This document shows, one piece after another, positions 941-43,484 of a stretch of 64,000 nt of DNA. Each line of letters starts with the position of its first letter. Position 1 is the stretch's first letter. The notes under the pieces were generated by a model. It ran no database searches, had not been told where the DNA came from, and saw only the letters and a program-made list of their open reading frames with translations. The position numbers were made by a program, and so were the translations under genes. The stretch comes from a bacterium (GTDB lineage Bacteria > Zhuqueibacterota > Zhuqueibacteria > Residuimicrobiales > Krinioviventaceae), in the NCBI GenBank assembly GCA_963675755.2, contig CAXXMD010000003.1:2816001-2880000 (forward strand). The letters run 5' to 3'.

Positions 941-2422
941 CTAGTCACCATTTGTTTGTACAGGAAGATAAATGCTGGTGGTTGTACCAATTTCTTCCTT
1001 GCTGTTAATTTTTAAAGTGCCTCCATGATGTTCAAAAACACTTTTACTGATTGTTAACCCCATACCGGAGCCATGTTCACAAGTGGTATACCCCGGTTTA
1101 AAAATGTTCTTCAAGTTTTCCGCAGAGATACCCCGACCATTGTCTATGATTTGCAGCAATATCATATCTTTACCACCAAATTCATTTAACGGATGGCTGA
1201 CCAGGGTTAATGTGATTAATATGTTCCCTGAGCTCTGCATTGCATTGATGCTATTGTCAAGGATGTTATAAAATGCTTCTTTGAACTGATCCTCATCCAG
1301 CTTGATCTGAACCGGTATTTCATCCAGCTCTGTTTTTACATGAACAGTTTCAGGGATGCGTAATTCATATTCTTTGAGAAAACGAACAAGAGCGGGTTTA
1401 AACGCCATAATCTGAAAGAGAGGTTCTTCCAGTTTGGCAAATTTCATAAATGAATTGATATTCTTGCGTACTCTTTCAATCTCTTCAATTGCCGCATGTG
1501 TCAAAACATCGTACTTTTCAGCGTTTTGAGTGTCTGATTTGTGATATTCACGCTCTAGTCTTTGTATGGCCAGCAATATTGTTGCAAGTGGAGTTTTGAT
1601 TTTGTGGGCCACACGTTGTGCCATGGCTCCCCAAAGCTTGATACGTTCAGCCTGGTTGTCGTTTTTTAGATCAATTACAAGAATTTGGGTATAATGTTTT
1701 TGTTTTATGGAAATGAATTGCATCTCTAACGCATACTGGTTCGAGTTGTCATGGGTATTGATGGTTTCTTCAGGAGCATATTGTATATAATTGTTTTGAA
1801 TGTAATCATCATAATGCTGCAGCACCGTAATAAATTCAGTATGCGATAGTAATTGATATATGGTTTTGCCTGCTGTATTTGCATCGGGTGTACCTGCAAA
1901 AGTCAGAAATGTTTTGTTTACAAATAATACCTGAGAATTGGATGATAACAACAGACAACCTATGCGATCAGATGAGTATAATTTGTTAAACAGGGAAACG
2001 AGATGAAGAGGCTGCTTGAAATAGAGCAGGCTGAACAAAACTGTTATAATAATTATTGATATCAATACGGGAAACAAGGGGAGGGTATGGGTACTTTTGG
2101 GGAATACATCCTGAACATTGATAACGAGATGCAAAAATTTGTCACCTGACATGACTGCATAATGCCGTTGTTGATTATTGGACTGGTTCAAAACCTGTAA
2201 CGCATTTTTCAAGTGAAGGGCCGAGATGTTTATCCATGCCAGGGGGGTGAGTGTATGGTCTGTTATCCAGATTTTGTCTGGTTTCTCTGTCCGTATTAGG
2301 TATTCTCTGTATCCATCACCATTTATGTCATCGCTGCCGATAATGCATGGTTTTGCCTCAATTTCTACAATCTTTTTGATTGCAAGCTTGTACAATTCAA
2401 GATCATATTCAACCAATACCAT
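941..2422 (-). CDS. Sensor histidine kinase, C-terminal part (TM, PAS-like, HisKA, HATPase)
   Basis: H-box VAHKIKTPL, N-box NILDNSINA, G-boxes DNGRG and GSGMGL. In frame with the upstream ORF across a single TAG at 2492-2494. Confidence 0.9.
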   Translation of the reverse strand: MVLVEYDLELYKLAIKKIVEIEAKPCIIGSDDINGDGYREYLIRTEKPDKIWITDHTLTPLAWINISALHLKNALQVLNQSNNQQRHYAVMSGDKFLHLVINVQDVFPKSTHTLPLFPVLISIIIITVLFSLLYFKQPLHLVSLFNKLYSSDRIGCLLLSSNSQVLFVNKTFLTFAGTPDANTAGKTIYQLLSHTEFITVLQHYDDYIQNNYIQYAPEETINTHDNSNQYALEMQFISIKQKHYTQILVIDLKNDNQAERIKLWGAMAQRVAHKIKTPLATILLAIQRLEREYHKSDTQNAEKYDVLTHAAIEEIERVRKNINSFMKFAKLEEPLFQIMAFKPALVRFLKEYELRIPETVHVKTELDEIPVQIKLDEDQFKEAFYNILDNSINAMQSSGNILITLTLVSHPLNEFGGKDMILLQIIDNGRGISAENLKNIFKPGYTTCEHGSGMGLTISKSVFEHHGGTLKINSKEEIGTTTSIYLPVQTNGD

Positions 2423-28192: not shown

Positions 28193-28241
28193 TCTTGATT
28201 ATTAATGTTTATATTTAAGGGAATAAGTGAAAGGGTATGGT

Positions 28242-29720
28242 ATGAAAATATTATTAATTTATCCAGAAACGCCCACAACCTTTTGGAGTTTCAGGCATGC
28301 CCTGCGGTTTATTTCAAAAAAATCAAGTGAACCGCCTTTGGGTCTGGTTACGGTTGCGTCATTGCTCCCAAATGATTGGGAGAAAAAACTGATTGATATG
28401 AATGTTACAACCCTGAAAGATAAGCATCTGCTTTGGGCAGATTATGTTTTCCTGACGGGGATGAATGTTCATCTGGAATCATTTAAAAAAGTAGTGAATC
28501 GTTGTAATGTTCTGGGAGTCAAGATAGTTGCCGGTGGCCCCATGTGTACTACGGATTATGAACAATTTCAGGGTATTGATCATTTTATTTTAAATGAAGC
28601 AGAAATTACATTGCCCATGTTTCTCAATGATCTCGAGCAAGGTATTCCCCAGGCAATATATAAATCGGATGAATTTCCGGATTTGAGTAAAACCCCGGTC
28701 CCGGACTGGAGTTTGCTGGATATGAAAAAATACGCTTCAATGAGTGTGCAGTATTCTCGTGGATGTCCCTTTAACTGTGAATTTTGCAGTGTTACCATGT
28801 TAAACGGCCATAAACCTAGAACAAAATCGGTCTCGCAATTTATTGGCGAACTAGATTCTTTATATTCAGCAGGTTGGCGGGGCGGCATTTTTATTGTAGA
28901 CGATAATTTTATTGGCAACAAGCACCGGGTAAAAACAGAATTACTGCCGGCATTAATTGAATGGCAGGAAATACATGATCAACCCTATGAGTTTTTGACC
29001 GAAGTCTCTATCAACCTTGCAGACGATGAAGAACTTGTAATATTACTGGTAAAAGCCGGTTTACGGACGGTTTTTATTGGTATTGAAACCCCCAATGAAG
29101 CCAGTTTGAACGAATGCGGAAAAGGACAAAATTTAAAACGGGATATTGTAGAATCGGTTAAAACCCTGCAGCGTCTTGGACTTGTGGTGCATGGTGGTTT
29201 TATTGTCGGTTTTGACAATGATCCTCAAACCATCTTTGAAGATCAGATAACATTTATACAAAACAGTGGTATTGCCACTGCAATGGTTGGGCTGTTAACA
29301 GCATTATCCGGTACCAAATTATTCAAACGTTTAAAGTCAGAAAATCGATTGTTAAATCTCTCATCCGGTAATAATATGGATGGTTCTTTGAATTTTGTAC
29401 CGACTATGAATTATACAAAATTGGTCAAAGGGTACAAATCACTGTTAGATACGATATATTCTCAAAAAGCATATTATGAACGGGTAAAGATCTTTTTAAA
29501 TGAATATCATATGCCGGAACGGCAAAAAATAAGAATTTCTTTTTACGACATTCGTGCCTTTTTCAGATCCATGATTGTATTGGGTATATTTGAAAAGGGG
29601 AGAAGTTATTATTGGCGATTACTTTTTTACACAATTGTAAAATATCCCAGAAAATTATATTTGGCAGTTACGCTGGCAATATATGGTTTTCATTTTCGGA
29701 GAATTGTTAAAACAGTCTAG
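28242..29720 (+). CDS. B12-binding-domain radical SAM protein (DUF4070-type C-terminus)
   Basis: MKILLIYP..FWSF, PPLGL, VAGGP, SRGCPFNCEFC, IVDDNFIGN. Confidence 0.92.
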   Translation: MKILLIYPETPTTFWSFRHALRFISKKSSEPPLGLVTVASLLPNDWEKKLIDMNVTTLKDKHLLWADYVFLTGMNVHLESFKKVVNRCNVLGVKIVAGGPMCTTDYEQFQGIDHFILNEAEITLPMFLNDLEQGIPQAIYKSDEFPDLSKTPVPDWSLLDMKKYASMSVQYSRGCPFNCEFCSVTMLNGHKPRTKSVSQFIGELDSLYSAGWRGGIFIVDDNFIGNKHRVKTELLPALIEWQEIHDQPYEFLTEVSINLADDEELVILLVKAGLRTVFIGIETPNEASLNECGKGQNLKRDIVESVKTLQRLGLVVHGGFIVGFDNDPQTIFEDQITFIQNSGIATAMVGLLTALSGTKLFKRLKSENRLLNLSSGNNMDGSLNFVPTMNYTKLVKGYKSLLDTIYSQKAYYERVKIFLNEYHMPERQKIRISFYDIRAFFRSMIVLGIFEKGRSYYWRLLFYTIVKYPRKLYLAVTLAIYGFHFRRIVKTV

Positions 29721-33900: not shown

Positions 33901-34672
33901 CCCATGGATGCGCATCCAGAATTTGATCACGAGTACAATCAAACAATTCAAGAGTTTTTTGGTTGCAATCGATAAATTGATTTCCCTGCATGATTAAAAT
34001 TGCATCACTGGCATTTTCAATAAGCGATCTGTACAACTTTTCGCTCTCACGCAAGGCGGTTTCCTGTTTCTTTGTTTCCGTTATATCCCTTATTACACTG
34101 TGAATCTGGTCAAGTTCTCCTAAATTGTTCGTGCTGGGTCTGCTTTCCAATTCAATTATTAGAATATTTCCATTATTGCTACGAATTTCCAGTTCTGTTG
34201 TAATATTATCAATATTATTTTTTAGATTTTGGACATGTTGCTCTAGCAGTTTGATGGATTTTGAAGGGAGGAAGTCTGAAAAATGGCGTCCGATAACATC
34301 ATAACGGGTATATTCAAAGCTATCAAGCCAGGTATGATTTACATCAACAATAACTCCATTGGGGTCCATACTTTGATAGGCAATGGGTGCTTTTTCAAAC
34401 AGATCCTGAAATCTTAATTCACTGAATTTTAGTTTTTGAGCATAAATTTGTATACGCTTGAGTAATAATCCCGTGAGTAAACCTGCAGTGCCGCCAACCG
34501 TAATTGGTATAAGATACCATTTGGGCTCAATTGGTATTTTGAATAGAGTACGTTGCAAGGTAGCGATAACAGCCAAGATGATTGAACCAAGTAGGAAAGA
34601 AAAAATACCTCGTTTTATCCAGGGAAGCAGCGGATATAATGATTTTGAATTTTTGAGTGCATTTTGGTTCAT
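30935..34672 (-). CDS. Hybrid multi-PAS/GAF sensor kinase with C-terminal receiver
   Basis: 2 TM, five PAS-like repeats, [40 protein letters not shown] (ILLAEDD, LDVVMP). GGAG RBS favours 34672. Confidence 0.93.
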
Positions 34673-34856
34673 TGACTGTCTCCTGTTACAATAGAAATCT
34701 ATTATGTTCGATTGGAGGCCAATAAATTTTACAAGCAATTCCCATTATTGCATGTAAAGGTATGCCTTGCTATTTTTGTCCCATGGCCTTGTTATATAAT
34801 TATATGATTTTCTTTGATTGTGTGCAAGTTAAATGTTTGTTTTTTATAAAATATGC

Positions 34857-34889
34857 AACCATGTCCGGCAATTGGAGCCGGACATGGTT
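34857..34889. terminator. Strong hairpin downstream of the 103-aa gene
   Basis: 13-bp perfect inverted repeat AACCATGTCCGGC / GCCGGACATGGTT. No clear U-tract. Confidence 0.55.
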
Positions 34890-34895
34890 TGCATT

Positions 34896-35207
34896 TCAGG
34901 ACGAAAACGCCTGATGTGCATCAATACAGCCAAGCTCTACAGCCTCCTGCAAAATATCAATGTGTCCCAATCGTTTGAAATAGAGGGACGCATAATTGCG
35001 CTGTACCAGGCTGCCTTGGAATAGATAGTAGCGAATTCTTGCACGGCCTTCCTGTGAGTCAACCAGTCCCAGCGCGTAATCAAGAATTTTATAGCTGCCA
35101 ATTCCCTTGGCGTCGTTCAGATACTGCATCAATATGTCAATATTTTCGGCAGTGCCTGATTTTGCTATCTGGCTGAGTTTGTCCATGGTTAACAGGTGGG
35201 TCGTCAT
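34896..35207 (-). CDS. Hypothetical helical protein (103 aa)
   Basis: Strong GGAGGTGG RBS before ATG. No domain recognised. Confidence 0.75.
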   Translation of the reverse strand: MTTHLLTMDKLSQIAKSGTAENIDILMQYLNDAKGIGSYKILDYALGLVDSQEGRARIRYYLFQGSLVQRNYASLYFKRLGHIDILQEAVELGCIDAHQAFSS

Positions 35208-35241
35208 TTTACCACCTCCCTTTCTTGAGTTAGGTTATATC

Positions 35242-35278
35242 AAAAAAAAAGCCCCGTTCTTTTCGGGAACGGGGCTTT
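35242..35278 (-). terminator. Attenuator terminator 2
   Basis: GCCCCGUUC-CCGAAAA-GAACGGGGC followed by U9. Confidence 0.9.
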
Positions 35279-35299
35279 AATGGATAGATAAAAGTGCCT

Positions 35300-35470
35300 T
35301 TACGGCCCCGTTTTGTTCATAATAGTATCAGTGCAATCAAAATCATCATTCATGGTATCTACAGCATAGAATACATCAAACGCATTGGAACAAACTGGCT
35401 GAGTTCCATTGCAGATGGCTTTATACATGATATCCATAATGTTGATGAAAATAGTTGATTTGTATTGCAT
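35300..35470 (-). CDS. Putative leader peptide 2 (56 aa, Asp and aspartate-family rich)
   Basis: AAGGA RBS. MQYKSTIFINIMDIMYKAICNGTQPVCSNAFDVFYAVDTMNDDFDCTDTIMNKTGP. Last codons contain the antiterminator strand. Confidence 0.65.
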   Translation of the reverse strand: MQYKSTIFINIMDIMYKAICNGTQPVCSNAFDVFYAVDTMNDDFDCTDTIMNKTGP

Positions 35471-35492
35471 GATTATTCCTTGTTTATAAATG

Positions 35493-35529
35493 AAAAAAGC
35501 CCCGCTCCTTATTGGGAACGAGGCTTTTT
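35493..35529 (-). terminator. Attenuator terminator 1
   Basis: GCCUCGUUCC-CAAUAA-GGAGCGGGGC followed by U6. The two G-U pairs form only on the minus strand. Confidence 0.88.
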
Positions 35530-35548
35530 AAGTTTATTTATAAATCTT

Positions 35549-35662
35549 TTATTGCCTCAATCCCGACGGTGCATCATCATCAATATCAAAATCAACAACA
35601 TCAAAGCAGACCGGTGCCCAAGCTTTGATTATAATGTTGAGATATGTTGTTGTTGTTTTCAT
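35549..35662 (-). CDS. Putative leader peptide 1 (37 aa; Thr, Ile and Asp runs)
   Basis: AAGGA RBS. MKTTTTYLNIIIKAWAPVCFDVVDFDIDDDAPSGLRQ, similar to peptide 2. Confidence 0.65.
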   Translation of the reverse strand: MKTTTTYLNIIIKAWAPVCFDVVDFDIDDDAPSGLRQ

Positions 35663-35699
35663 ATTGATTTTTTATTTCCTTAAAATTTAATGAGCAATA

Positions 35700-35727
35700 A
35701 ATATAGCATTTTTTCAGATTAATGCAA
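35700..35727 (-). promoter_or_regulatory. Putative promoter for the leader cassettes
   Basis: Minus strand TTGCAT, 16 bp, TATATT with an extended -10 TGn. Confidence 0.5.
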
Positions 35728-35739
35728 CAATTTTTTGTT

Positions 35740-38562
35740 TTATTTTAACAAAACCATCCTCTGAATGGATGAATATTTATCTGCTTTTATATTTAACCAA
35801 TAAATTCCGGAACTGACGGGTAAATTTGATTGATTGGTCCCGTTCCAGAAAAGTTGATGACTTCCCAAAGACATATTCCTGTTTATTAATTCTTTAACAA
35901 CTCTGCCATAAACATCATAAATTGTTAGTTTTACTTTTGCAGGTTTTGGCAGGTCAAAGCGGATGCTGGTTCCTGCATTAAATGGATTGGGAAAATTGGG
36001 GTAAAGTTGAAACTCAAGTGGCAGTTTTTCATTGCCATCATCAATTCCTGTACCTTTTTGTATAGAGAAATTAAAGGCTTGTTCGCATTCAGTCAAATGT
36101 CCGTCCAGGTCAATTGCAGTAACGTTCCATTGGTAGCTGTCACCTGCTAAAAGATTTGTATTGATCTGAAAAGAATTACCTACAACATATTGGTCAATAA
36201 TTACTGTTTCAATTCCTGTCATTTGTTTTACAACAAGATGATAAGTAATGTTATCACCGGGATCATTATCGTCGGCTTTTTCCCATTTTAATTCCGGAGT
36301 CAATGTAGAAAGGGTGCTTTTGTCTTCCGGTGACATGAGCCGAAAAGTATCAGGAGCCTGATTGTCGATAAACATTGCTCCCAGATCCCAATTGCCGGAT
36401 GTTTGACGTTCATTGCCATAATAATCGGTTGTAAACCAATCAAGTGCCGGGCCATTTTGGCGGGCAGGAGAAAGCGTTAACAGGTAAACGTCAGATACCA
36501 TGTTGGGCATATTGTTACCATATACTATTAATGGATCACCGTCGAGTGAACCTGATGCGTTAAGGGTATTGTTTTTATTGTCCCAATATTCCTGGAACAT
36601 CTCAATGGTTGTAAAATCTCGTTCATACGTGGGCAGTTCTTCATCGCGATAATGAATGATAGCATTGTTAACCGACAAAGGGCCCGTACCATATAAATTA
36701 TGATGCATAATATGTGAATGCCCGGCAACATCTGCAATGCTGAGCTGGAATTCGGCATTGTTGTAAATTATATTGCCTATAATGGTTTCAGCTTCAATCT
36801 GTCGGGACCCTGAAATTGTAGTTACCAAAGCCAGGCCGGCTTTGTAACCCGCATGCTCACTTGATCCATTTGCAATGATGGTATTATAAAGAACCTGGCA
36901 ATATTTACTTGCAGTAATGGCGATCCCCGCTCCTTCATTACCGAAACAGATATTATTATAAATCCAGGTGCTGTCTGCACCCTGATCAGCAATAATGCCA
37001 TTGCCGTCGCTCCACCAGTCGGCACCCACAGTGCCGGCAGTTCCCTGATTGTTATTACTGCTAACATTCCGCTTGACGATATTTCCTATACTTGATCCAT
37101 GAATGTTTATTCCACTGCATCCGCCATGCATCCAACCATTGTTCCAGACCGAGTTATGTTCAACAATATTGTGTGAGCCATTCACACTGATTCCCCAGGC
37201 ACCATTGTTCAGGCTTTGATTATGAGAAACACTACCTTCATTTGAATTGGATAACGAGATTCCCGAAGCACCGCAATCCTGGACCACATTGTTTTCAATA
37301 ACAATACCGGAAAGGGGAGAATCTTCCGAATATACATAAATACCATGTCCGGCACGACCGCCGTCTTTGGGATATTTGATCCATGAACTGTCGTATTCGG
37401 TTTTATCGATAGTAGCCGGGTAGCTGATTTTACTGATTGTATTTTCATTGATTGTTATGTCGTTTGTGTTTTGGACATGAATTGCAGAATAACTGTTTAC
37501 AATTTCAAAAGTCGATTCATCAGGATCACCTGAAATGTTATTAAGGATGATCTGGTTTCCGGAACCGGCATTTGTAACCGCAATATGTGAAGAATGTTGT
37601 TCAGTTGGGGAACCGTTTTCCCAAAATGTGCATGACTGAACAAGATTGTCTGTTGAATTGCTACCAATTATGGAAAGGGCTGATTCTCCCATATTATTGG
37701 AAAAATTGCAAATGTTAATTCTGGTTTTATTGGCATGACTTATTAAACAGCTAATCCCTGAATTGTTGCTAAAACTATTGTCAAAAACACTGTTTTCAAT
37801 GGGTATGGAATCCGATTCCTTGAGTTCATCCGGTTCGATGCCAATGGATAATGCAATGCCTGAAAGATTGGAAAATTCGTTATAGGAGATATCGGTAAAT
37901 GATGTTCGTGAACACCACACACCGCGTTCGGTTATGGTATCTGTCTGTGTTAAAGTATTCTGCAGGATGCGATTATAGTCTCCTGCCGTATCAAGGTAAA
38001 TATGGGCATCCCATATTCTTTCAGCATTACCCGTATTGGTAAAGGTGCATTCAGAGATTTCATTGTACGATGATGTGTTAAAAACATGGATTGCAGCAGA
38101 ACCTTGATTATCTGAAAATGTACAGTTGGTTATTTTATTATAATGCGAGTTATCAAGTAAAATAGGTTTACGATTTTCAGCACAGTTTGAAAATTCTAAA
38201 TTCTGTATATGAACAAAAGATACGCCTGTTAGATCCAGTGCGTATGTACCATCCCATGAATCCGCTGTCAGGATCGGTGTTTCGTTTTCGTAAGCCATGA
38301 TAACGATGGGATCAAGGGCGGTGCCAGATGCATGAACCTCTATTTTTTCAGAATAGGTGCCGTAACGAATGAAAAGCGTATCGCCGTGAACAAGGTATGG
38401 CACTGCATGAGATATTGTTTTGAACGGCCCATGATTGTCGGTTACAACCGGTGCAAGGCCATCAAAAGCATCGTTGCCACCGCTTTGAGCGACATACCAG
38501 GTTTCGGAATAGAGTGAGGCAGAAGAGATGAGCAGTAAAATGAGCAAGAATTGTTTTATCAT
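35740..38562 (-). CDS. Secreted right-handed beta-helix (pectin-lyase-like) protein with C-terminal FlgD/T9SS-type sorting domain
   Basis: Signal peptide, WYVA..GND..DG...PFKTI..A, many Asn-ladder PbH1-like repeats, WDLGA, C-terminal LYPNFPNPFN...QRMVLLK. Confidence 0.88.
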   Translation of the reverse strand: MIKQFLLILLLISSASLYSETWYVAQSGGNDAFDGLAPVVTDNHGPFKTISHAVPYLVHGDTLFIRYGTYSEKIEVHASGTALDPIVIMAYENETPILTADSWDGTYALDLTGVSFVHIQNLEFSNCAENRKPILLDNSHYNKITNCTFSDNQGSAAIHVFNTSSYNEISECTFTNTGNAERIWDAHIYLDTAGDYNRILQNTLTQTDTITERGVWCSRTSFTDISYNEFSNLSGIALSIGIEPDELKESDSIPIENSVFDNSFSNNSGISCLISHANKTRINICNFSNNMGESALSIIGSNSTDNLVQSCTFWENGSPTEQHSSHIAVTNAGSGNQIILNNISGDPDESTFEIVNSYSAIHVQNTNDITINENTISKISYPATIDKTEYDSSWIKYPKDGGRAGHGIYVYSEDSPLSGIVIENNVVQDCGASGISLSNSNEGSVSHNQSLNNGAWGISVNGSHNIVEHNSVWNNGWMHGGCSGINIHGSSIGNIVKRNVSSNNNQGTAGTVGADWWSDGNGIIADQGADSTWIYNNICFGNEGAGIAITASKYCQVLYNTIIANGSSEHAGYKAGLALVTTISGSRQIEAETIIGNIIYNNAEFQLSIADVAGHSHIMHHNLYGTGPLSVNNAIIHYRDEELPTYERDFTTIEMFQEYWDNKNNTLNASGSLDGDPLIVYGNNMPNMVSDVYLLTLSPARQNGPALDWFTTDYYGNERQTSGNWDLGAMFIDNQAPDTFRLMSPEDKSTLSTLTPELKWEKADDNDPGDNITYHLVVKQMTGIETVIIDQYVVGNSFQINTNLLAGDSYQWNVTAIDLDGHLTECEQAFNFSIQKGTGIDDGNEKLPLEFQLYPNFPNPFNAGTSIRFDLPKPAKVKLTIYDVYGRVVKELINRNMSLGSHQLFWNGTNQSNLPVSSGIYWLNIKADKYSSIQRMVLLK

Positions 38563-38671
38563 GGTTCCTTTCCGGTAATAGTTAATGCTGATAGTATACA
38601 AATTGTGTGCCAAATTCCAAATGTTAAAGTGTTGTGAAAATGAAACATTTTTATTATACTGTCGTATATTT

Positions 38672-38722: not shown

Positions 38723-39379
38723 ATGGGAGTACAGGAACGCAGAGAACGTGAAAAAGAACAGCGTCGCAATGATATTTTAGATGCCGCTGAGCAGGTTTTC
38801 TTTGAAAAAGGTTTATCCTTGTCAACAATGGATGATGTTGCAGAGGCAGCAGAATTGAGTAAAGGTACATTGTATTTGTATTTCAATAGCAAGCAGGAGC
38901 TTTACCTGGGAATACACCAGCGTGGATTTGCGAAAATGCATGAAATGTTTACAACTGCTGCGGGAATGCATAAACAGGGTGTAGACAAGATCCGTGCAAT
39001 TGGAAATGCGTATTACGAGTTTTCAAAAAAGTATCCGGATTATTACAAGGCGATTATGTATTTTGAAGGTTCTGTTCTGGATTTTACTTCTGACAGCGAA
39101 ATGATAGAGCTATACCATCGAGATGGTAAGCAGGTTATGCAGTTTGTCCAAAATGTATTGAGTGAAGGTATTGATGATGGCACTATTGTTACAGATTTTC
39201 AGGTAGAACGGCTGGCTTTTATCTTGTGGGGACAAATCTCCGGAGTAATTCAGATCATTTCAAAAATATCGCAACATCCGGATAAACAAATCCAGTTTAA
39301 TCCTTTTGATTTGTTTGATGACTATATGCAATTTATGGGTAAATTGCTCATTAATCCTGGCAAGGAGGATAAATCTTGA
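38723..39379 (+). CDS. TetR/AcrR-family regulator
   Basis: ILDAAEQVFFEKG..TMDDVAEAAELSKGTLYLYFNSKQEL. Confidence 0.95.
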   Translation: MGVQERREREKEQRRNDILDAAEQVFFEKGLSLSTMDDVAEAAELSKGTLYLYFNSKQELYLGIHQRGFAKMHEMFTTAAGMHKQGVDKIRAIGNAYYEFSKKYPDYYKAIMYFEGSVLDFTSDSEMIELYHRDGKQVMQFVQNVLSEGIDDGTIVTDFQVERLAFILWGQISGVIQIISKISQHPDKQIQFNPFDLFDDYMQFMGKLLINPGKEDKS

Positions 39380-40440
39380 GAATACGATTAATTTTTGTAA
39401 ATATAATTCTAGTGGTCCTTTTATCATTTCTTTTGTCCAGTTGTAACCGACAGCAGGAAATTGTAAAAGAGGATTTGACAGTACCAGTAGAGACAGCTTC
39501 AATTCAACAGCAACATGTACAGGAAACACTGCATGCATCGGGGACGTTGCAATCGGGGCAGATCAGCAAACTTTCTTTTAAAATAGGCGGTATTATCAAA
39601 GATATACGTGTGGATGAAGCCGAGTCTGTGAAAAAAGGACAGATCCTGGCCGAGTTGTATCCTGACGAGATAGAAGCGCAATTGAAAAACGCGCGAACCC
39701 AATTTGAAAAAACCAAACGTGATTTTGAACGGGCCAAAAATCTGATAAAAGACAATGCAATATCTGTTCAACAGCGCCAGGATGCGGAATCGGCTTTTGA
39801 TGCTGCTACTGCAACATTACAGATTGCAGAGTTTAATGCCAAACATGCCAGGATAATTGCCCCTTCTTCCGGTAAAATATTGAAAATTATTGCTGAAGAA
39901 AATGAAATGACTGGTGCAGGAACACCTGTGCTGGTGTTTGCCTCTACCAGCAGTGCATGGCTGGTCAAGGTAAACATGTCTGATAAAGATGTGGTCAAAC
40001 TCTCAATGGGTGACCCGGCAGATATTCGGTTTGATGCATTTCCCGGCAAGGTATATAAAGCACATATCAGCGAAATTTCAGAATCGGCAGACAGTATGAC
40101 TGGTTTGTATGCGGTAGAATTGCAGCTGGATGACGAATTGGCTCGAAAGATCAATGGGCTGGTTGCTTCAATAGATATTATTCCGCAGCAAAAAACACAA
40201 TGTTTTCTTTTACCAACCAGTGCAATAGTCAGCGCGGTTGGTCAATCCGGATATGTTTATAAATTAGATGAATCCAATAACGCTGTCAAAGTCTCCATTA
40301 ATATATTGGGATTTTACAAAGATCAGTTGATGGTTGCCGGAGATTTATTAGATGGGGACAAGATCATTACAACCGGTGCCGCATACCTAAAAGAGGATAG
40401 CAAAATAGTGGTTTCTTCCAATGCGGAGGTCGGAAAATGA
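39376..40440 (+). CDS. RND efflux periplasmic adaptor (lipoprotein)
   Basis: Lipobox LSSC, LSFKIGGII..V..G, coiled hairpin, IIAPSSG. TTG start overlaps the tetR stop. Confidence 0.92.
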   Translation: MRIRLIFVNIILVVLLSFLLSSCNRQQEIVKEDLTVPVETASIQQQHVQETLHASGTLQSGQISKLSFKIGGIIKDIRVDEAESVKKGQILAELYPDEIEAQLKNARTQFEKTKRDFERAKNLIKDNAISVQQRQDAESAFDAATATLQIAEFNAKHARIIAPSSGKILKIIAEENEMTGAGTPVLVFASTSSAWLVKVNMSDKDVVKLSMGDPADIRFDAFPGKVYKAHISEISESADSMTGLYAVELQLDDELARKINGLVASIDIIPQQKTQCFLLPTSAIVSAVGQSGYVYKLDESNNAVKVSINILGFYKDQLMVAGDLLDGDKIITTGAAYLKEDSKIVVSSNAEVGK

Positions 40441-43400
40441 ACATTTCCCGGTTTTCTATAGAGAACCATCATTTTACGCTCATGGTGGTTTTGCTGTTGA
40501 TGCTGTATGGTATCTTTGCGGTAGTTGATATGCCAAAATCCGAGAATCCTGCTATTGAACCTCCGGGAGCATCGATAATCGCGCTTTATCCCGGTGCTAC
40601 TCCTCAGGATATGGAAGAGCAGGTGACCTCTATAATTGAAGAAGAGGTGAACAGTATATCTGATGTTGCAGAAATTTATTCGATAAGCGGTAATAGTTAT
40701 TGCAATATTACGGTAGAATTTGATTTTGGTGTAGATATTGATGAAAAGTATTCGCTGCTTGTTGAAAAGGTCAATCGGGCTAAAAATGATCTTCCTGATG
40801 ATATAAGCAGTCTGGATGTAGTTAAATGGGATATTAATGCGGTTAATATTTTAGAACTGGCTCTGGTTTCAGAAACAGCAGAATATGTGGACATGGAGAC
40901 CGAGCTTGAAAAGTTAAAAGATGTTATTGAAAAAATCGAGGGTATTCGCGGTGCCGAGATTGTAGCTTATCCTGAACAACAGGTACGTGTTTCATTGAAT
41001 CTGGAAAAAATGGCGCAAATGCATATTCCTGTTGATCGGGTGATTGGGGTGATTCAATCGGCCAATGCCAATATACCTGGCGGCAAGATTGACATAGGCG
41101 GCAAGAATTTTAATATCAATACTAGCGGTTCTTATGAAACATTGGATGATATTCGAAATACAACCATTCCCATGGGTAACGGATCAATTATTTATTTAAA
41201 AGATATTGCAACGGTCCAATATGATTATGAAGACCTGGAGCATTATGCCCGGTTTAATGGAAAACGGGCTGTTTTACTAGCGGCGAATCAGAAAAATGGT
41301 ACCAATCTTTTTCAAATTATTGATGAAATTAAAGCGGCTGTTGCTGATTTTAATAAAGATCTGCCGGATAATATGCACGTTGCTTTTGTTTATAACCAGT
41401 CTGAAAGTGTGGGCGATTTTGTTGTAGAGTTTTTGATCAATCTGCTTGAGGGGATTTTACTGGTAGGTATTGTAGCCTGGCTGGGGATTGGAACACGTCC
41501 TGCTTTGTTGGTAATATTTACTATACCCGCATCTATTGCCATTGCATTGGGATTTTTAAAACTGAGCGATTATGGTATACAGCAAATGACTATTGCCGGC
41601 TTGGTTATTGTGCTGGGTATTCTTGTAGATAATGCTATTGTTGTTACAGAAAATGTTAACCGCTTTTTACGTATGGGCAAAGACCTTAAAGAAGCATCTG
41701 TACGTGGAGCAACGCAGATTTCCGGTTCCATAACCAGTGGTACAATAACAACCTGTCTGGCATTTATGCCCATATTGTTGATGAGTGATGTTGCCGGTCA
41801 ATACGTGCGCAGTATGCCGCTAACGGTTATTTTTACTTTGCTTGCGTCTCTGTTTCTGGCCCTTACTTTTACTCCGTATTTGACCAGTCGATATCTGTCT
41901 GTCAAGTCTGCATCAAATACAAGTTTAATGCAAAAAACATTGCAGAATTTTATAGAAACCCATTACCGCAGGGTTTTGAAATTCGCATTGAAACGTCCTA
42001 AAACTGTGCTCTTGCTCAGTATTCTGATATTTTTAATCAGTGTGGGACTGGTGCCTTTTGTAGGGGTAAGTATGTTTCCCAAATCGAACAAGCCCATGTT
42101 TTATATCAATGTCTCTACACCGGAGGGAACCAATCTGCAGGTTACGGACCATGTTGTAACCCAGGTAGAAGAGTTGCTTGATGAAAAAGGGTTTGTAAGA
42201 CATTTTGTTGCCAATATTGGCGGTGATAATCCTCGTATATATTATAATGTTATACCAAAGCAGAACCATGCCAATATTGGGCAGGTATTTGTTGAAGTGT
42301 ACCCGGATTATTCGCGGCAGGTGGGCGAGATTGTGAGCGGGATGCGGGAAGAGTTGAAAGAAATTCCCGGCGCTAAATTTGAGGTCAAGCAGTTGGAACA
42401 AGGTTACCCCAATGACGCGCCTATTGCAATCAAGGTTGTAGGTAAAGATATGGATATCATTAAAGACTTGTCAGCGCAGGTAGAATCTGTTTTTCGCAAC
42501 ACCACAGGTGTAATAGAGATTGATGATCCTTTGGGTAATGAGAAAACAGATTTAAAAATTGATATCAATCGGGAAAAGTGCGCCATGCTGGGATTGACCC
42601 TGGCAGAGGTGGACAGAGCCATACGTATTGCATTGTCCGGTTATGATGTGTCTACATTCAGGAACCGGGATGGAGACCAGTTTGATATTATTGTACGGTT
42701 ACCTGTGCACGAATCCCCAAGGATTTCTGATTTTGAGCGGATTTATTTGACAACACCGGCGGGCTCGCAGGTCCCCTTGAAACAGGTAGCGAGTATTGGA
42801 TTTGAATCCAGTCCGCTAAATATTTATCGATATCAACTCGAGCGGAGTAATACCGTGACCGGAGATGCTGCTCCCGCTTATTCTGTTGATCAACTGACTG
42901 GTGAGATTATTGAAAAGCTGGATAATATGGACTGGCCTGCCGGATATGGTTACCATGTCAGTGGTGAAAAAGAAAGCCAGGGTAAGGCGTTTGGTGGATT
43001 GGGTAACAATTTTATCATTGCAATTATAGGTATCTTTTCCGTACTTGTGTTCCAATTCCGTTCGTTTCGCCAACCGTTTATTATCTTTTCATCCATACCG
43101 CTGGCAATTATTGGATCTATTTTGGCGCTGCTGATTACAGGCAATACTTTTTCTTTTACGGCCATGATTGGACTGACGAGTCTGGCCGGAATTGTGATCA
43201 ATAACGCAATCATTCTGGTGGATTATGCCAATGAGTTGCGTAATGAAGGAAAGGATTTGGACACGGCTGTGAGCATATCCGGTGAAACAAGGTTTACTCC
43301 AATCATCTTGACCGTTGCGACTACTATTGGTGGATTGTTGCCATTGACCTTGTTTGGTGGATTAATGTGGGCGCCTATGGGATGGGCCATTATCGGCGGA

Positions 43401-43484
43401 TTGATGACATCCACCTTTTTAACACTGGTGGTTGTACCGGTCTTGTACAAGGTGTTTACGCCGTCCATACCAGTAACTGAATAA
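40437..43484 (+). CDS. AcrB/AcrD/AcrF-family RND permease
   Basis: YPGATP..MEEQV, GILVDNAIVVTEN, GIVINNAIILVD, RFTPIILT; 1015 aa. Confidence 0.96.
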   Translation: MNISRFSIENHHFTLMVVLLLMLYGIFAVVDMPKSENPAIEPPGASIIALYPGATPQDMEEQVTSIIEEEVNSISDVAEIYSISGNSYCNITVEFDFGVDIDEKYSLLVEKVNRAKNDLPDDISSLDVVKWDINAVNILELALVSETAEYVDMETELEKLKDVIEKIEGIRGAEIVAYPEQQVRVSLNLEKMAQMHIPVDRVIGVIQSANANIPGGKIDIGGKNFNINTSGSYETLDDIRNTTIPMGNGSIIYLKDIATVQYDYEDLEHYARFNGKRAVLLAANQKNGTNLFQIIDEIKAAVADFNKDLPDNMHVAFVYNQSESVGDFVVEFLINLLEGILLVGIVAWLGIGTRPALLVIFTIPASIAIALGFLKLSDYGIQQMTIAGLVIVLGILVDNAIVVTENVNRFLRMGKDLKEASVRGATQISGSITSGTITTCLAFMPILLMSDVAGQYVRSMPLTVIFTLLASLFLALTFTPYLTSRYLSVKSASNTSLMQKTLQNFIETHYRRVLKFALKRPKTVLLLSILIFLISVGLVPFVGVSMFPKSNKPMFYINVSTPEGTNLQVTDHVVTQVEELLDEKGFVRHFVANIGGDNPRIYYNVIPKQNHANIGQVFVEVYPDYSRQVGEIVSGMREELKEIPGAKFEVKQLEQGYPNDAPIAIKVVGKDMDIIKDLSAQVESVFRNTTGVIEIDDPLGNEKTDLKIDINREKCAMLGLTLAEVDRAIRIALSGYDVSTFRNRDGDQFDIIVRLPVHESPRISDFERIYLTTPAGSQVPLKQVASIGFESSPLNIYRYQLERSNTVTGDAAPAYSVDQLTGEIIEKLDNMDWPAGYGYHVSGEKESQGKAFGGLGNNFIIAIIGIFSVLVFQFRSFRQPFIIFSSIPLAIIGSILALLITGNTFSFTAMIGLTSLAGIVINNAIILVDYANELRNEGKDLDTAVSISGETRFTPIILTVATTIGGLLPLTLFGGLMWAPMGWAIIGGLMTSTFLTLVVVPVLYKVFTPSIPVTE

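Follow-up and report, generated by a model that had tools for sequence, protein, structure and literature searches.

Tandem putative leader-peptide attenuators upstream of a HEAT-like repeat gene in a member of the Zhuqueibacterota

Positions 34850–35730 on the minus strand of a 64,000-nucleotide stretch of a bacterial genome (the window, meaning the whole stretch analysed; contig CAXXMD010000003.1 of assembly GCA_963675755.2, from a member of the Zhuqueibacterota) carry two short cassettes in series, each comprising a leader open reading frame (ORF), an antiterminator strand at the end of that ORF and an intrinsic terminator, followed by a gene for a 103-residue HEAT-like protein. A preliminary description of this DNA, made from the sequence by itself, had proposed two attenuators in series, and the presence of leader ORF, antiterminator and terminator, twice over, is confirmed here. 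Each cassette is probably a ribosome-dependent attenuator. That the two in series gate the monocistronic HEAT-like gene is a reading to which we give an even chance, and we are similarly divided over whether what is sensed is the overall state of translation and not one particular amino acid. Judged from sequence, the locus represents a new family within an established class of switch, doubled in series, before an uncharacterized HEAT-like protein.

Layout, pairing and conservation of the cassettes

Reading the minus strand gives the order ORF1, terminator 1, ORF2, terminator 2, the 103-residue gene and a closing terminator; as far as the gene this is the order of the preliminary description, which had listed a ribosome-binding site (RBS), an ORF and a terminator twice and then a strong RBS and the gene. 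ORF1 (35662..35549; 37 codons, six of them Asp) has an AAGGA-type RBS about 12 nucleotides (nt) upstream and is followed by terminator 1 (35529..35494), with a 15-base-pair (bp) stem, a 6-nt loop and a U tract. ORF2 (35470..35300; 56 codons, including seven for Asp and three for Cys) has an AAGGA RBS and is followed by terminator 2 (35278..35248), with a 12-bp stem, a 7-nt loop and nine U. The regulated gene (35207..34896) has a strong RBS, GGGAGGTGG, and the unit is closed by a terminator with a 13-bp stem (34889..34857); all three terminators were located by a terminator scan. Seven terminator-like sites were found by consensus scan in 34600–36000, against 1.3 ± 1.4 in shuffled sequences. 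By blastn, the terminators and cassettes are single-copy in the genome (G000; 6.48 Mb, 39–40% GC) and do not belong to a repeat family. The gaps from terminator 1 to ORF2 (24 nt) and from terminator 2 to the gene (40 nt) leave no room for a promoter; thus, the 103-residue protein would be made only if both terminators were read through. A promoter may lie upstream of ORF1, where a motif consisting of TTGCAT, 16 nt and a TG-extended TATATT (TGnTATATT) can be read at 35727..35700 on the same strand. Two relatives, G005 and G014, have a similar TTGCA(T/A), 16–17 nt and an A/T-rich hexamer at the equivalent position.

Antiterminator strand 1 (35564..35554, minus strand) ends 2 nt before the ORF1 stop codon and pairs with 35524..35514 in the 5′ arm of terminator 1, with 10 of 11 positions paired, one as G–U, and a duplex energy of −14.5 kcal/mol. 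Antiterminator strand 2 (35312..35297, minus strand) abuts and overruns the ORF2 stop and pairs with 35283..35268; all eight positions of its core (35312..35305) pair with the 5′ arm of terminator 2, and the duplex energy is −15.9 kcal/mol. Both pairings had been given in the preliminary description, as had the difference of U–A in cassette 1 versus C–G in cassette 2, and each is correct on reading the sequence. Both antiterminators appear in the minimum-energy fold of a transcript ending at the terminator loop. A U in the 5′ arm of cassette 1 forms a Watson–Crick pair with the antiterminator and a G–U wobble with the 3′ arm, as is expected of a strand under two constraints.

To set these pairings against chance, the best pairing of the 5′ arm with the 8–75 nt upstream was scored for 397 strict terminators from the whole genome. 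Mean complementarity was −6.8 kcal/mol (standard deviation 2.5), and cassettes 2 and 1 rank second and third of the 397; the upstream complementarity of both exceeds chance. The first rank is held by a terminator outside the window (G000:C3:3091717..3091691, minus strand; −17.4 kcal/mol), which may belong to another attenuator.

Of 41 near relatives, 5 carry a homologue of the 103-residue protein; across the phylum the number is 6 of 167 genomes, the source genome included, and the gene appears rare and patchily distributed there. The preliminary description had suggested a search of related genomes for homologous leaders. Such leaders stand directly upstream of the gene in all six phylum genomes and on one metagenome contig (L123), 11 cassettes in total: two each in G000, in its same-genus relative G001, in G005 and in G014, and one each in G022, G079 and L123. 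We refer to these window-like cassettes as KSB1-type, as a label only. The layout before the orthologues is the same, and in 11 of 11 cassettes a core of 7–11 bp that can pair with the 5′ arm reaches up to or into the leader stop codon. The computed duplexes end between 2 nt ahead of the stop and 11 nt beyond its first nucleotide. The sequences themselves differ. Four antiterminator/terminator pairs covary, namely GAGGC/GCCUC, ACGGGGC/GCCCCGU, GGAACGGG/CCCGUUCC and a fourth in L123. On this comparison, the attenuator architecture appears real and conserved with covariation. The G079 locus (L167, ~1835–2010, minus strand) has a second intrinsic terminator between cassette 1 and the gene; no leader ORF ends at it, and the sole long frame there reads through into the gene start.

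Leader translation, folding and competing explanations

We infer that ORF1 and ORF2 are translated, given their RBSs, the in-frame indels of ORF2 and the retention of the stop position at the antiterminator. Among sequencing runs, two of a single study were found to contain this DNA, and none was of RNA. Compared with G001, ORF1 is identical at 107 of 114 nt, with three amino-acid changes. For ORF2, 140 of 175 columns of the nucleotide alignment agree, as do 43 of 58 at the amino-acid level, and its only indels, of 3 nt and 9 nt, are both in frame. At the GC content of this genome, frames staying open for 37 and 56 codons would not ordinarily be expected. The 103-residue gene is identical to that of G001 at 290 of 312 nt, and its 22 changes alter two residues; the rapid divergence of the ORF2 peptide against this conserved protein fits a regulatory ORF rather than a functional small protein. 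No further copies of either ORF were found in the genome by tblastn. Paralogy of ORF1 and ORF2 was considered and is not supported by the BLASTP match between them (E = 0.035 over 16 residues), which is not significant.

Each cassette was folded with and without a ribosome, a check put forward in the preliminary description, using a 28-nt footprint centred on Asp codons or placed with the stop codon in the A site. When the 5′ arm and loop have emerged and no ribosome is present, the antiterminator forms and engages 9 nt of the arm. This 9-nt pairing persists with a ribosome on any of the Asp codons tested and is lost with a ribosome on the stop codon. Any stall upstream of the last ~5 codons, or the absence of a ribosome, frees the antiterminator in these folds; stalls at Asp are therefore not special. 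The trpL/thrL-type geometry asserted earlier stands insofar as a ribosome at the stop covers the antiterminator, but neither window cassette is predicted to form a 1:2 anti-antiterminator hairpin, and when the ORF regions are folded the antiterminator strands stay unpaired or almost unpaired.

The leader start codons are themselves predicted to lie in helices. In cassette 1, a 20-bp helix joins the ORF1 start region, including the AUG (35668..35648, minus strand), to GAU-rich codons (35600..35579); the ORF1 region folds at −32.3 kcal/mol (z = −3.13), one of 200 shuffles folds as well, and the helix is predicted in G001 too. The corresponding prediction for cassette 2 is a 14-bp helix between the ORF2 start region, including the AUG (35473..35459, minus strand), and Asp-Cys-rich codons (35341..35327). 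G001 keeps it: the 3′ strand there has a U-to-G change and the 5′ strand an inserted stretch, and the two strands still pair. The GAU-rich codons form the 3′ strand of the start-codon helix, which offers an RNA-level reason for the GAU runs that does not involve transfer RNA for aspartate, tRNA(Asp).

We propose that transcription would begin upstream of ORF1 and that both terminators would have to be passed for the gene to be expressed. A ribosome at the stop codon while the polymerase makes the hairpin would cover the antiterminator strand, and the terminator would form; if the ribosome had stalled upstream, dropped off or never initiated, the antiterminator would form first and the polymerase would read on. 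With the start codon held in a helix with downstream codons, initiation could also be blocked. As the folds of the window cassettes predict no anti-antiterminator, a leader without translation would be "on", and efficient leader translation would keep the gene off. The device would then report leader translation, in the sense of initiation or elongation capacity or of translation stress, and not the supply of one amino acid, and two serial cassettes would multiply its stringency.

Several observations weigh against this proposal. Once the complete hairpin has emerged, the terminator is the minimum-energy structure in every case, so the antiterminator would have to act kinetically, as in classical attenuators. 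Even when a ribosome occupies the stop codon, part of the arm (7 nt in cassette 1, 4 nt in cassette 2) finds weaker partners upstream. Support for the start-codon helix of cassette 2 is modest (z = −1.78; 7 of 200 shuffles fold as well), and no equivalent is evident in G005 or G014. In G022, the start region pairs instead with the region after the stop, and G022 alone has a predicted pairing of the 1:2 type; thus, a leader that is "on" by default may not be common to every member. The promoter-like motif upstream of ORF1, noted in the preliminary description, is present by eye but falls under the thresholds of the consensus scan, which lists no minus-strand site there. The 11 cassettes come from few lineages, including two same-genus pairs, and so are not independent, although at least four or five of them are. 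Finally, every leader examined has at least one Asp codon, and the Asp clusters are kept between G000 and G001.

These last two observations bear on aspartate sensing, in which scarce charged tRNA(Asp) would stall the ribosome at GAU and free the antiterminator, with two such switches in series. The clusters cited for it in the preliminary description are present: Asp takes 6 of 37 codons in ORF1 and 7 of 56 in ORF2, all 13 are GAU, and they lie upstream of the antiterminator strands. They persist in G001 (5 of 37 and 8 of 54), the antiterminator stays available in the folds whichever of the tested Asp codons the ribosome stalls on, and the recurrence of Asp in every leader, mostly as GAU with few GAC in the Chloroflexota-type leaders considered below, would fit a role for the residue or its tRNA. 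However, the clusters are confined to the genus, the other seven cassettes having one to three Asp codons each (G005, 2 of 43 and 2 of 61; G014, 2 of 41 and 2 of 48; G022, 3 of 27; G079, 3 of 41; L123, 1 of 37), and no run of regulatory codons matching the regulated gene is conserved among the homologues. The GAU runs also serve as one strand of the helix over the leader start codon, the fold is identical for any stall or for no ribosome, and the gene under control is HEAT-like, with no Asp-related gene near it. Loss of Asp from homologues had been named at the outset as a finding that would speak against aspartate sensing; it is seen for the clusters, but one Asp codon always remains. We regard an Asp-tRNA(Asp) sensor as unlikely and weakly supported, and on present evidence the locus does not provide a first aspartate attenuator.

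The Asp run could instead act through the nascent peptide, destabilizing or pausing the ribosome in the manner of MgtL and thereby reporting Mg2+ or the activity of an ABC-F rescue factor, which we judge distinctly unlikely. Acidic patterns within the first 30 residues are reported to pause ribosomes, and drop-off on MgtL to remodel the leader RNA (Ousalem et al. 2024, PMC11282234). The ORF1 leader resembles such EttA-modulated pausing in its early acidic residues, its run occupying residues 21–30, within the pausing zone, and the footprint geometry fits drop-off as well as a stall. The run in ORF2 lies at residues 38–48, however, neither run has interspersed prolines, and relatives have only one to three residues of an acidic run. 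MgtL combines an acidic/proline motif in the first ~30 residues with a Rho-dependent terminator and a Mg2+ transporter gene; this combination is not found in the window, where the terminators are intrinsic and the gene is HEAT-like rather than one for a transporter.

Two further explanations would set leader translation aside as a regulatory signal. In one, the ORFs are independent small-protein genes that merely adjoin the 103-residue gene, perhaps encoding peptides that act with the HEAT-like protein. Each ORF does have an RBS and a terminator, the synteny of small ORFs with the gene is conserved, HEAT/ARM repeats generally bind peptides, and armadillo-peptide designs are among the weak structural matches of the protein. 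We nevertheless hold this to be very improbable: the ORF2 peptide diverges far faster than the 103-residue protein, neither peptide has a paralogue in the genome or a Pfam or NCBIfam family, the leader peptides cannot be aligned across relatives and yet the pairing of ORF end with terminator is kept, and a separate promoter for the 103-residue gene would not fit into the space before it. A translation-independent RNA switch, whether a riboswitch or an antiterminator controlled by a protein or a small RNA, would make the ORFs incidental, and is improbable as well. It would accommodate the strong predicted structure of the ORF1 region, the conservation of the Chloroflexota-type 3′ half in nucleotides rather than residues, with two frames in use, and the several open frames of the GC-rich leaders. 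It does not readily accommodate frames of 37 and 56 codons with RBSs, which stand out at 39–40% GC, indels that stay in frame, or a stop that remains at the antiterminator in all 11 KSB1-type cassettes despite their differing sequences; nor was there a match to an Rfam family.

The HEAT-like protein family and its other leaders

Structural modelling and profile comparison indicate that the 103-residue product is a HEAT/alphaRep-like helical-repeat protein and not an amino-acid enzyme. Its AlphaFold2 model is all-helical, with seven helices and a mean predicted local distance difference test score (pLDDT) of 92.3. Compared with the PDB, a profile built from 38 homologues hits alphaRep chains, with a best E of 2e-16, and 6veh, a "HEAT repeat domain-containing protein" (E = 3.2e-06). 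The protein itself has no match in Pfam, HEAT models included, in NCBIfam or in PADLOC, and a Foldseek search of the PDB returned no match at E ≤ 0.001; the weak matches include alphaRep and designed armadillo-peptide complexes. A word-based homologue search found two proteins only, and an Atlas search found "hypothetical" and HEAT-repeat clusters. At E ≤ 0.001, the family comprises 125 representative clusters among 1.84 billion.

Among 15 longer members that were scanned, the module, of ~100 residues, is C-terminal to TIR, caspase, KAP-NTPase, Ser/Thr kinase, GNAT or alpha/beta hydrolase domains (P0027, P0039, P0063, P0064, P0031, P0057, P0060, P0017, P0030 and P0073). A NACHT-HEAT protein is also among the family matches. 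PADLOC defence models match the TIR, caspase, KAP-NTPase and kinase partners, and give no match for the GNAT and alpha/beta-hydrolase fusions. In view of the fusions to TIR, caspase, KAP-NTPase and Ser/Thr-kinase domains, it is conceivable, though we consider it improbable, that a translation-capacity gauge switches on the stand-alone form as a HEAT-like adaptor that is a partner or decoy of such conflict systems, linking translation shut-off to an immune or stress response. Failure of ribosomes to load or finish, for example through phage takeover, a toxin, starvation or ribosome-targeting drugs, could bypass both terminators; were this true, a leader-peptide attenuator family with such a role would be common to KSB1-like bacteria and Chloroflexota. 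No defence island surrounds the gene in the window, and no conserved downstream partner is found among 49 leader-bearing loci of the wider family.

Those 49 loci come from a set of 158 homologue loci in genome and metagenome collections, of which 104 with a stand-alone gene were examined and 54 were left out as fused, truncated or short of upstream sequence. The automated test called for a short ORF followed by a terminator at least as stable as −13 kcal/mol, and 49 of the 104 pass it; at least seven further loci are alike by eye (L074, L076, L103, L111, L128, L146 and L158). Most leader-bearing loci lie on GC-rich contigs titled Chloroflexota or Anaerolineae and have a single cassette (among them L013, L023, L037, L041–L043, L050, L054, L059, L060, L064, L084 and ~35 more). 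They yield 47 distinct leader sequences, 46 of which align well and share a hydrophobic stretch, then Ser-Asp-Cys, then nucleotides complementary to the terminator arm. In these Chloroflexota-type leaders a −10-like box precedes the start codon by a few nt, so that the transcript may be leaderless or nearly so. Unlike in the KSB1-type, the best antiterminator lies 20–33 nt before the ORF end in most members. Two sub-families read the 3′ half in different frames, with stops within a few nt of each other. By eye, the first codons seem to form a long-range helix with the region after the stop, and in one sub-family the pairing of antiterminator with terminator seems to show a compensatory change from G–C to A–U. 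Apart from the terminator, RNAalifold gave little consensus structure for this set, and a column-pair covariation scan was too noisy to use.

Homology between the KSB1-type and Chloroflexota-type leaders is unproven at the sequence level. A hidden Markov model (HMM) of 41 Chloroflexota-type peptides did not place the window ORFs among the best 15 of 46,777 small ORFs of the genome; scores were −1.4 and −1.7 for the window ORFs, 9.5 bits (E = 2) for G022 and 2.5 for L123. The Ser-Asp-Cys resemblance of the G022 and L123 leaders to the Chloroflexota-type was followed up as a possible link and set aside, since these scores give it no statistical support. No Rfam family reaches threshold in 18 related loci.

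Where no cassette is present, the gene often has a different kind of neighbour. The upstream frame in 25 cassette-less loci is PadR-type in 13, cyclic-nucleotide-binding (cNMP-binding; Crp/Fnr-like) in four, an alpha/beta hydrolase in four and DegV in two, with no match in the remaining two. Dedicated upstream regulators at such loci imply that the gene is under dedicated control in many lineages, by different means, and we infer from these neighbours that it is probably inducible and tightly controlled in other lineages too. Three cassette-less loci (L139, L142 and L067) have long, perfect, AT-rich palindromes upstream of the gene that are operator-like. L135 has a 48-codon ORF directly after a promoter-like motif, with no canonical terminator; this ORF may be a third kind of leader for the HEAT-like gene family.

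Relation to known attenuators and surroundings of the locus

Most known cases of leader-peptide attenuation come from amino-acid operons in Proteobacteria and resistance genes in Firmicutes. In trpL, thrL and hisL of E. coli, a short translated leader and an intrinsic terminator are combined with an antiterminator that depends on ribosome position, and a ribosome at the stop favours termination. The window cassettes share with these a leader ORF with an RBS, here of inferred translation, an intrinsic terminator and a mutually exclusive antiterminator overlapping the ORF end. They differ in having no predicted 1:2 hairpin and no conserved run of regulatory codons, and in preceding a HEAT-like gene instead of a biosynthetic operon. 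The Rfam Thr_leader model (RF00506) gives 27.8 bits for cassette 2 and 23.4 for cassette 1, short of its gathering score of 55.

In leaders of the ermC, vmlR, bmrCD and lmo0919 types, impaired leader translation prevents the terminator and switches on a gene for resistance or translation stress. By analogy, the window architecture would fit such stalling logic, and the regulated gene is likewise non-metabolic; the window leaders differ from these systems in that they cannot be tied to a drug, an arrest motif or a resistance function, and no arrest motif is common to the KSB1-type leaders. Tandem leader ORFs are known from the Salmonella mgtCBR leader, where mgtM and mgtP sense ATP and proline-charged tRNA, two different signals, an arrangement that its authors call a singular example (Lee and Groisman 2012, PMC3641672). 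The window resembles it in carrying a pair of short leader ORFs one after the other on a single leader RNA, and differs in that its two cassettes are of the same build, with canonical intrinsic terminators and a gene of another class.

Neither this leader family nor an aspartate attenuator was found in the literature searched, in a small search of an incomplete collection. Kaur et al. 2020 (PMC7159879) mention neither attenuation nor leader peptides, and HEAT once, in general terms. The window adds a well-supported, covarying example from barely studied phyla, doubled and absent from Rfam, and a compact natural design with two terminators in series. If the switch reports translation status, it would also offer a handle on when the HEAT-like family is needed.

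The neighbours of the gene in the window are ordinary. Directly upstream lies a gene for a 957-residue protein with a right-handed beta-helix and, at its C-terminus, a type IX secretion sorting domain (35740..38613, minus strand); it has a weak terminator-like hairpin of its own at 35772..35754. Beyond it, on the plus strand, are a TetR-family regulator and then a membrane-fusion protein and an AcrB-type resistance-nodulation-division (RND) pump (38723..43484). A hybrid histidine kinase is also among the neighbours, and a B12-binding radical SAM protein with DUF4070 is encoded on the plus strand at 28227..29720.

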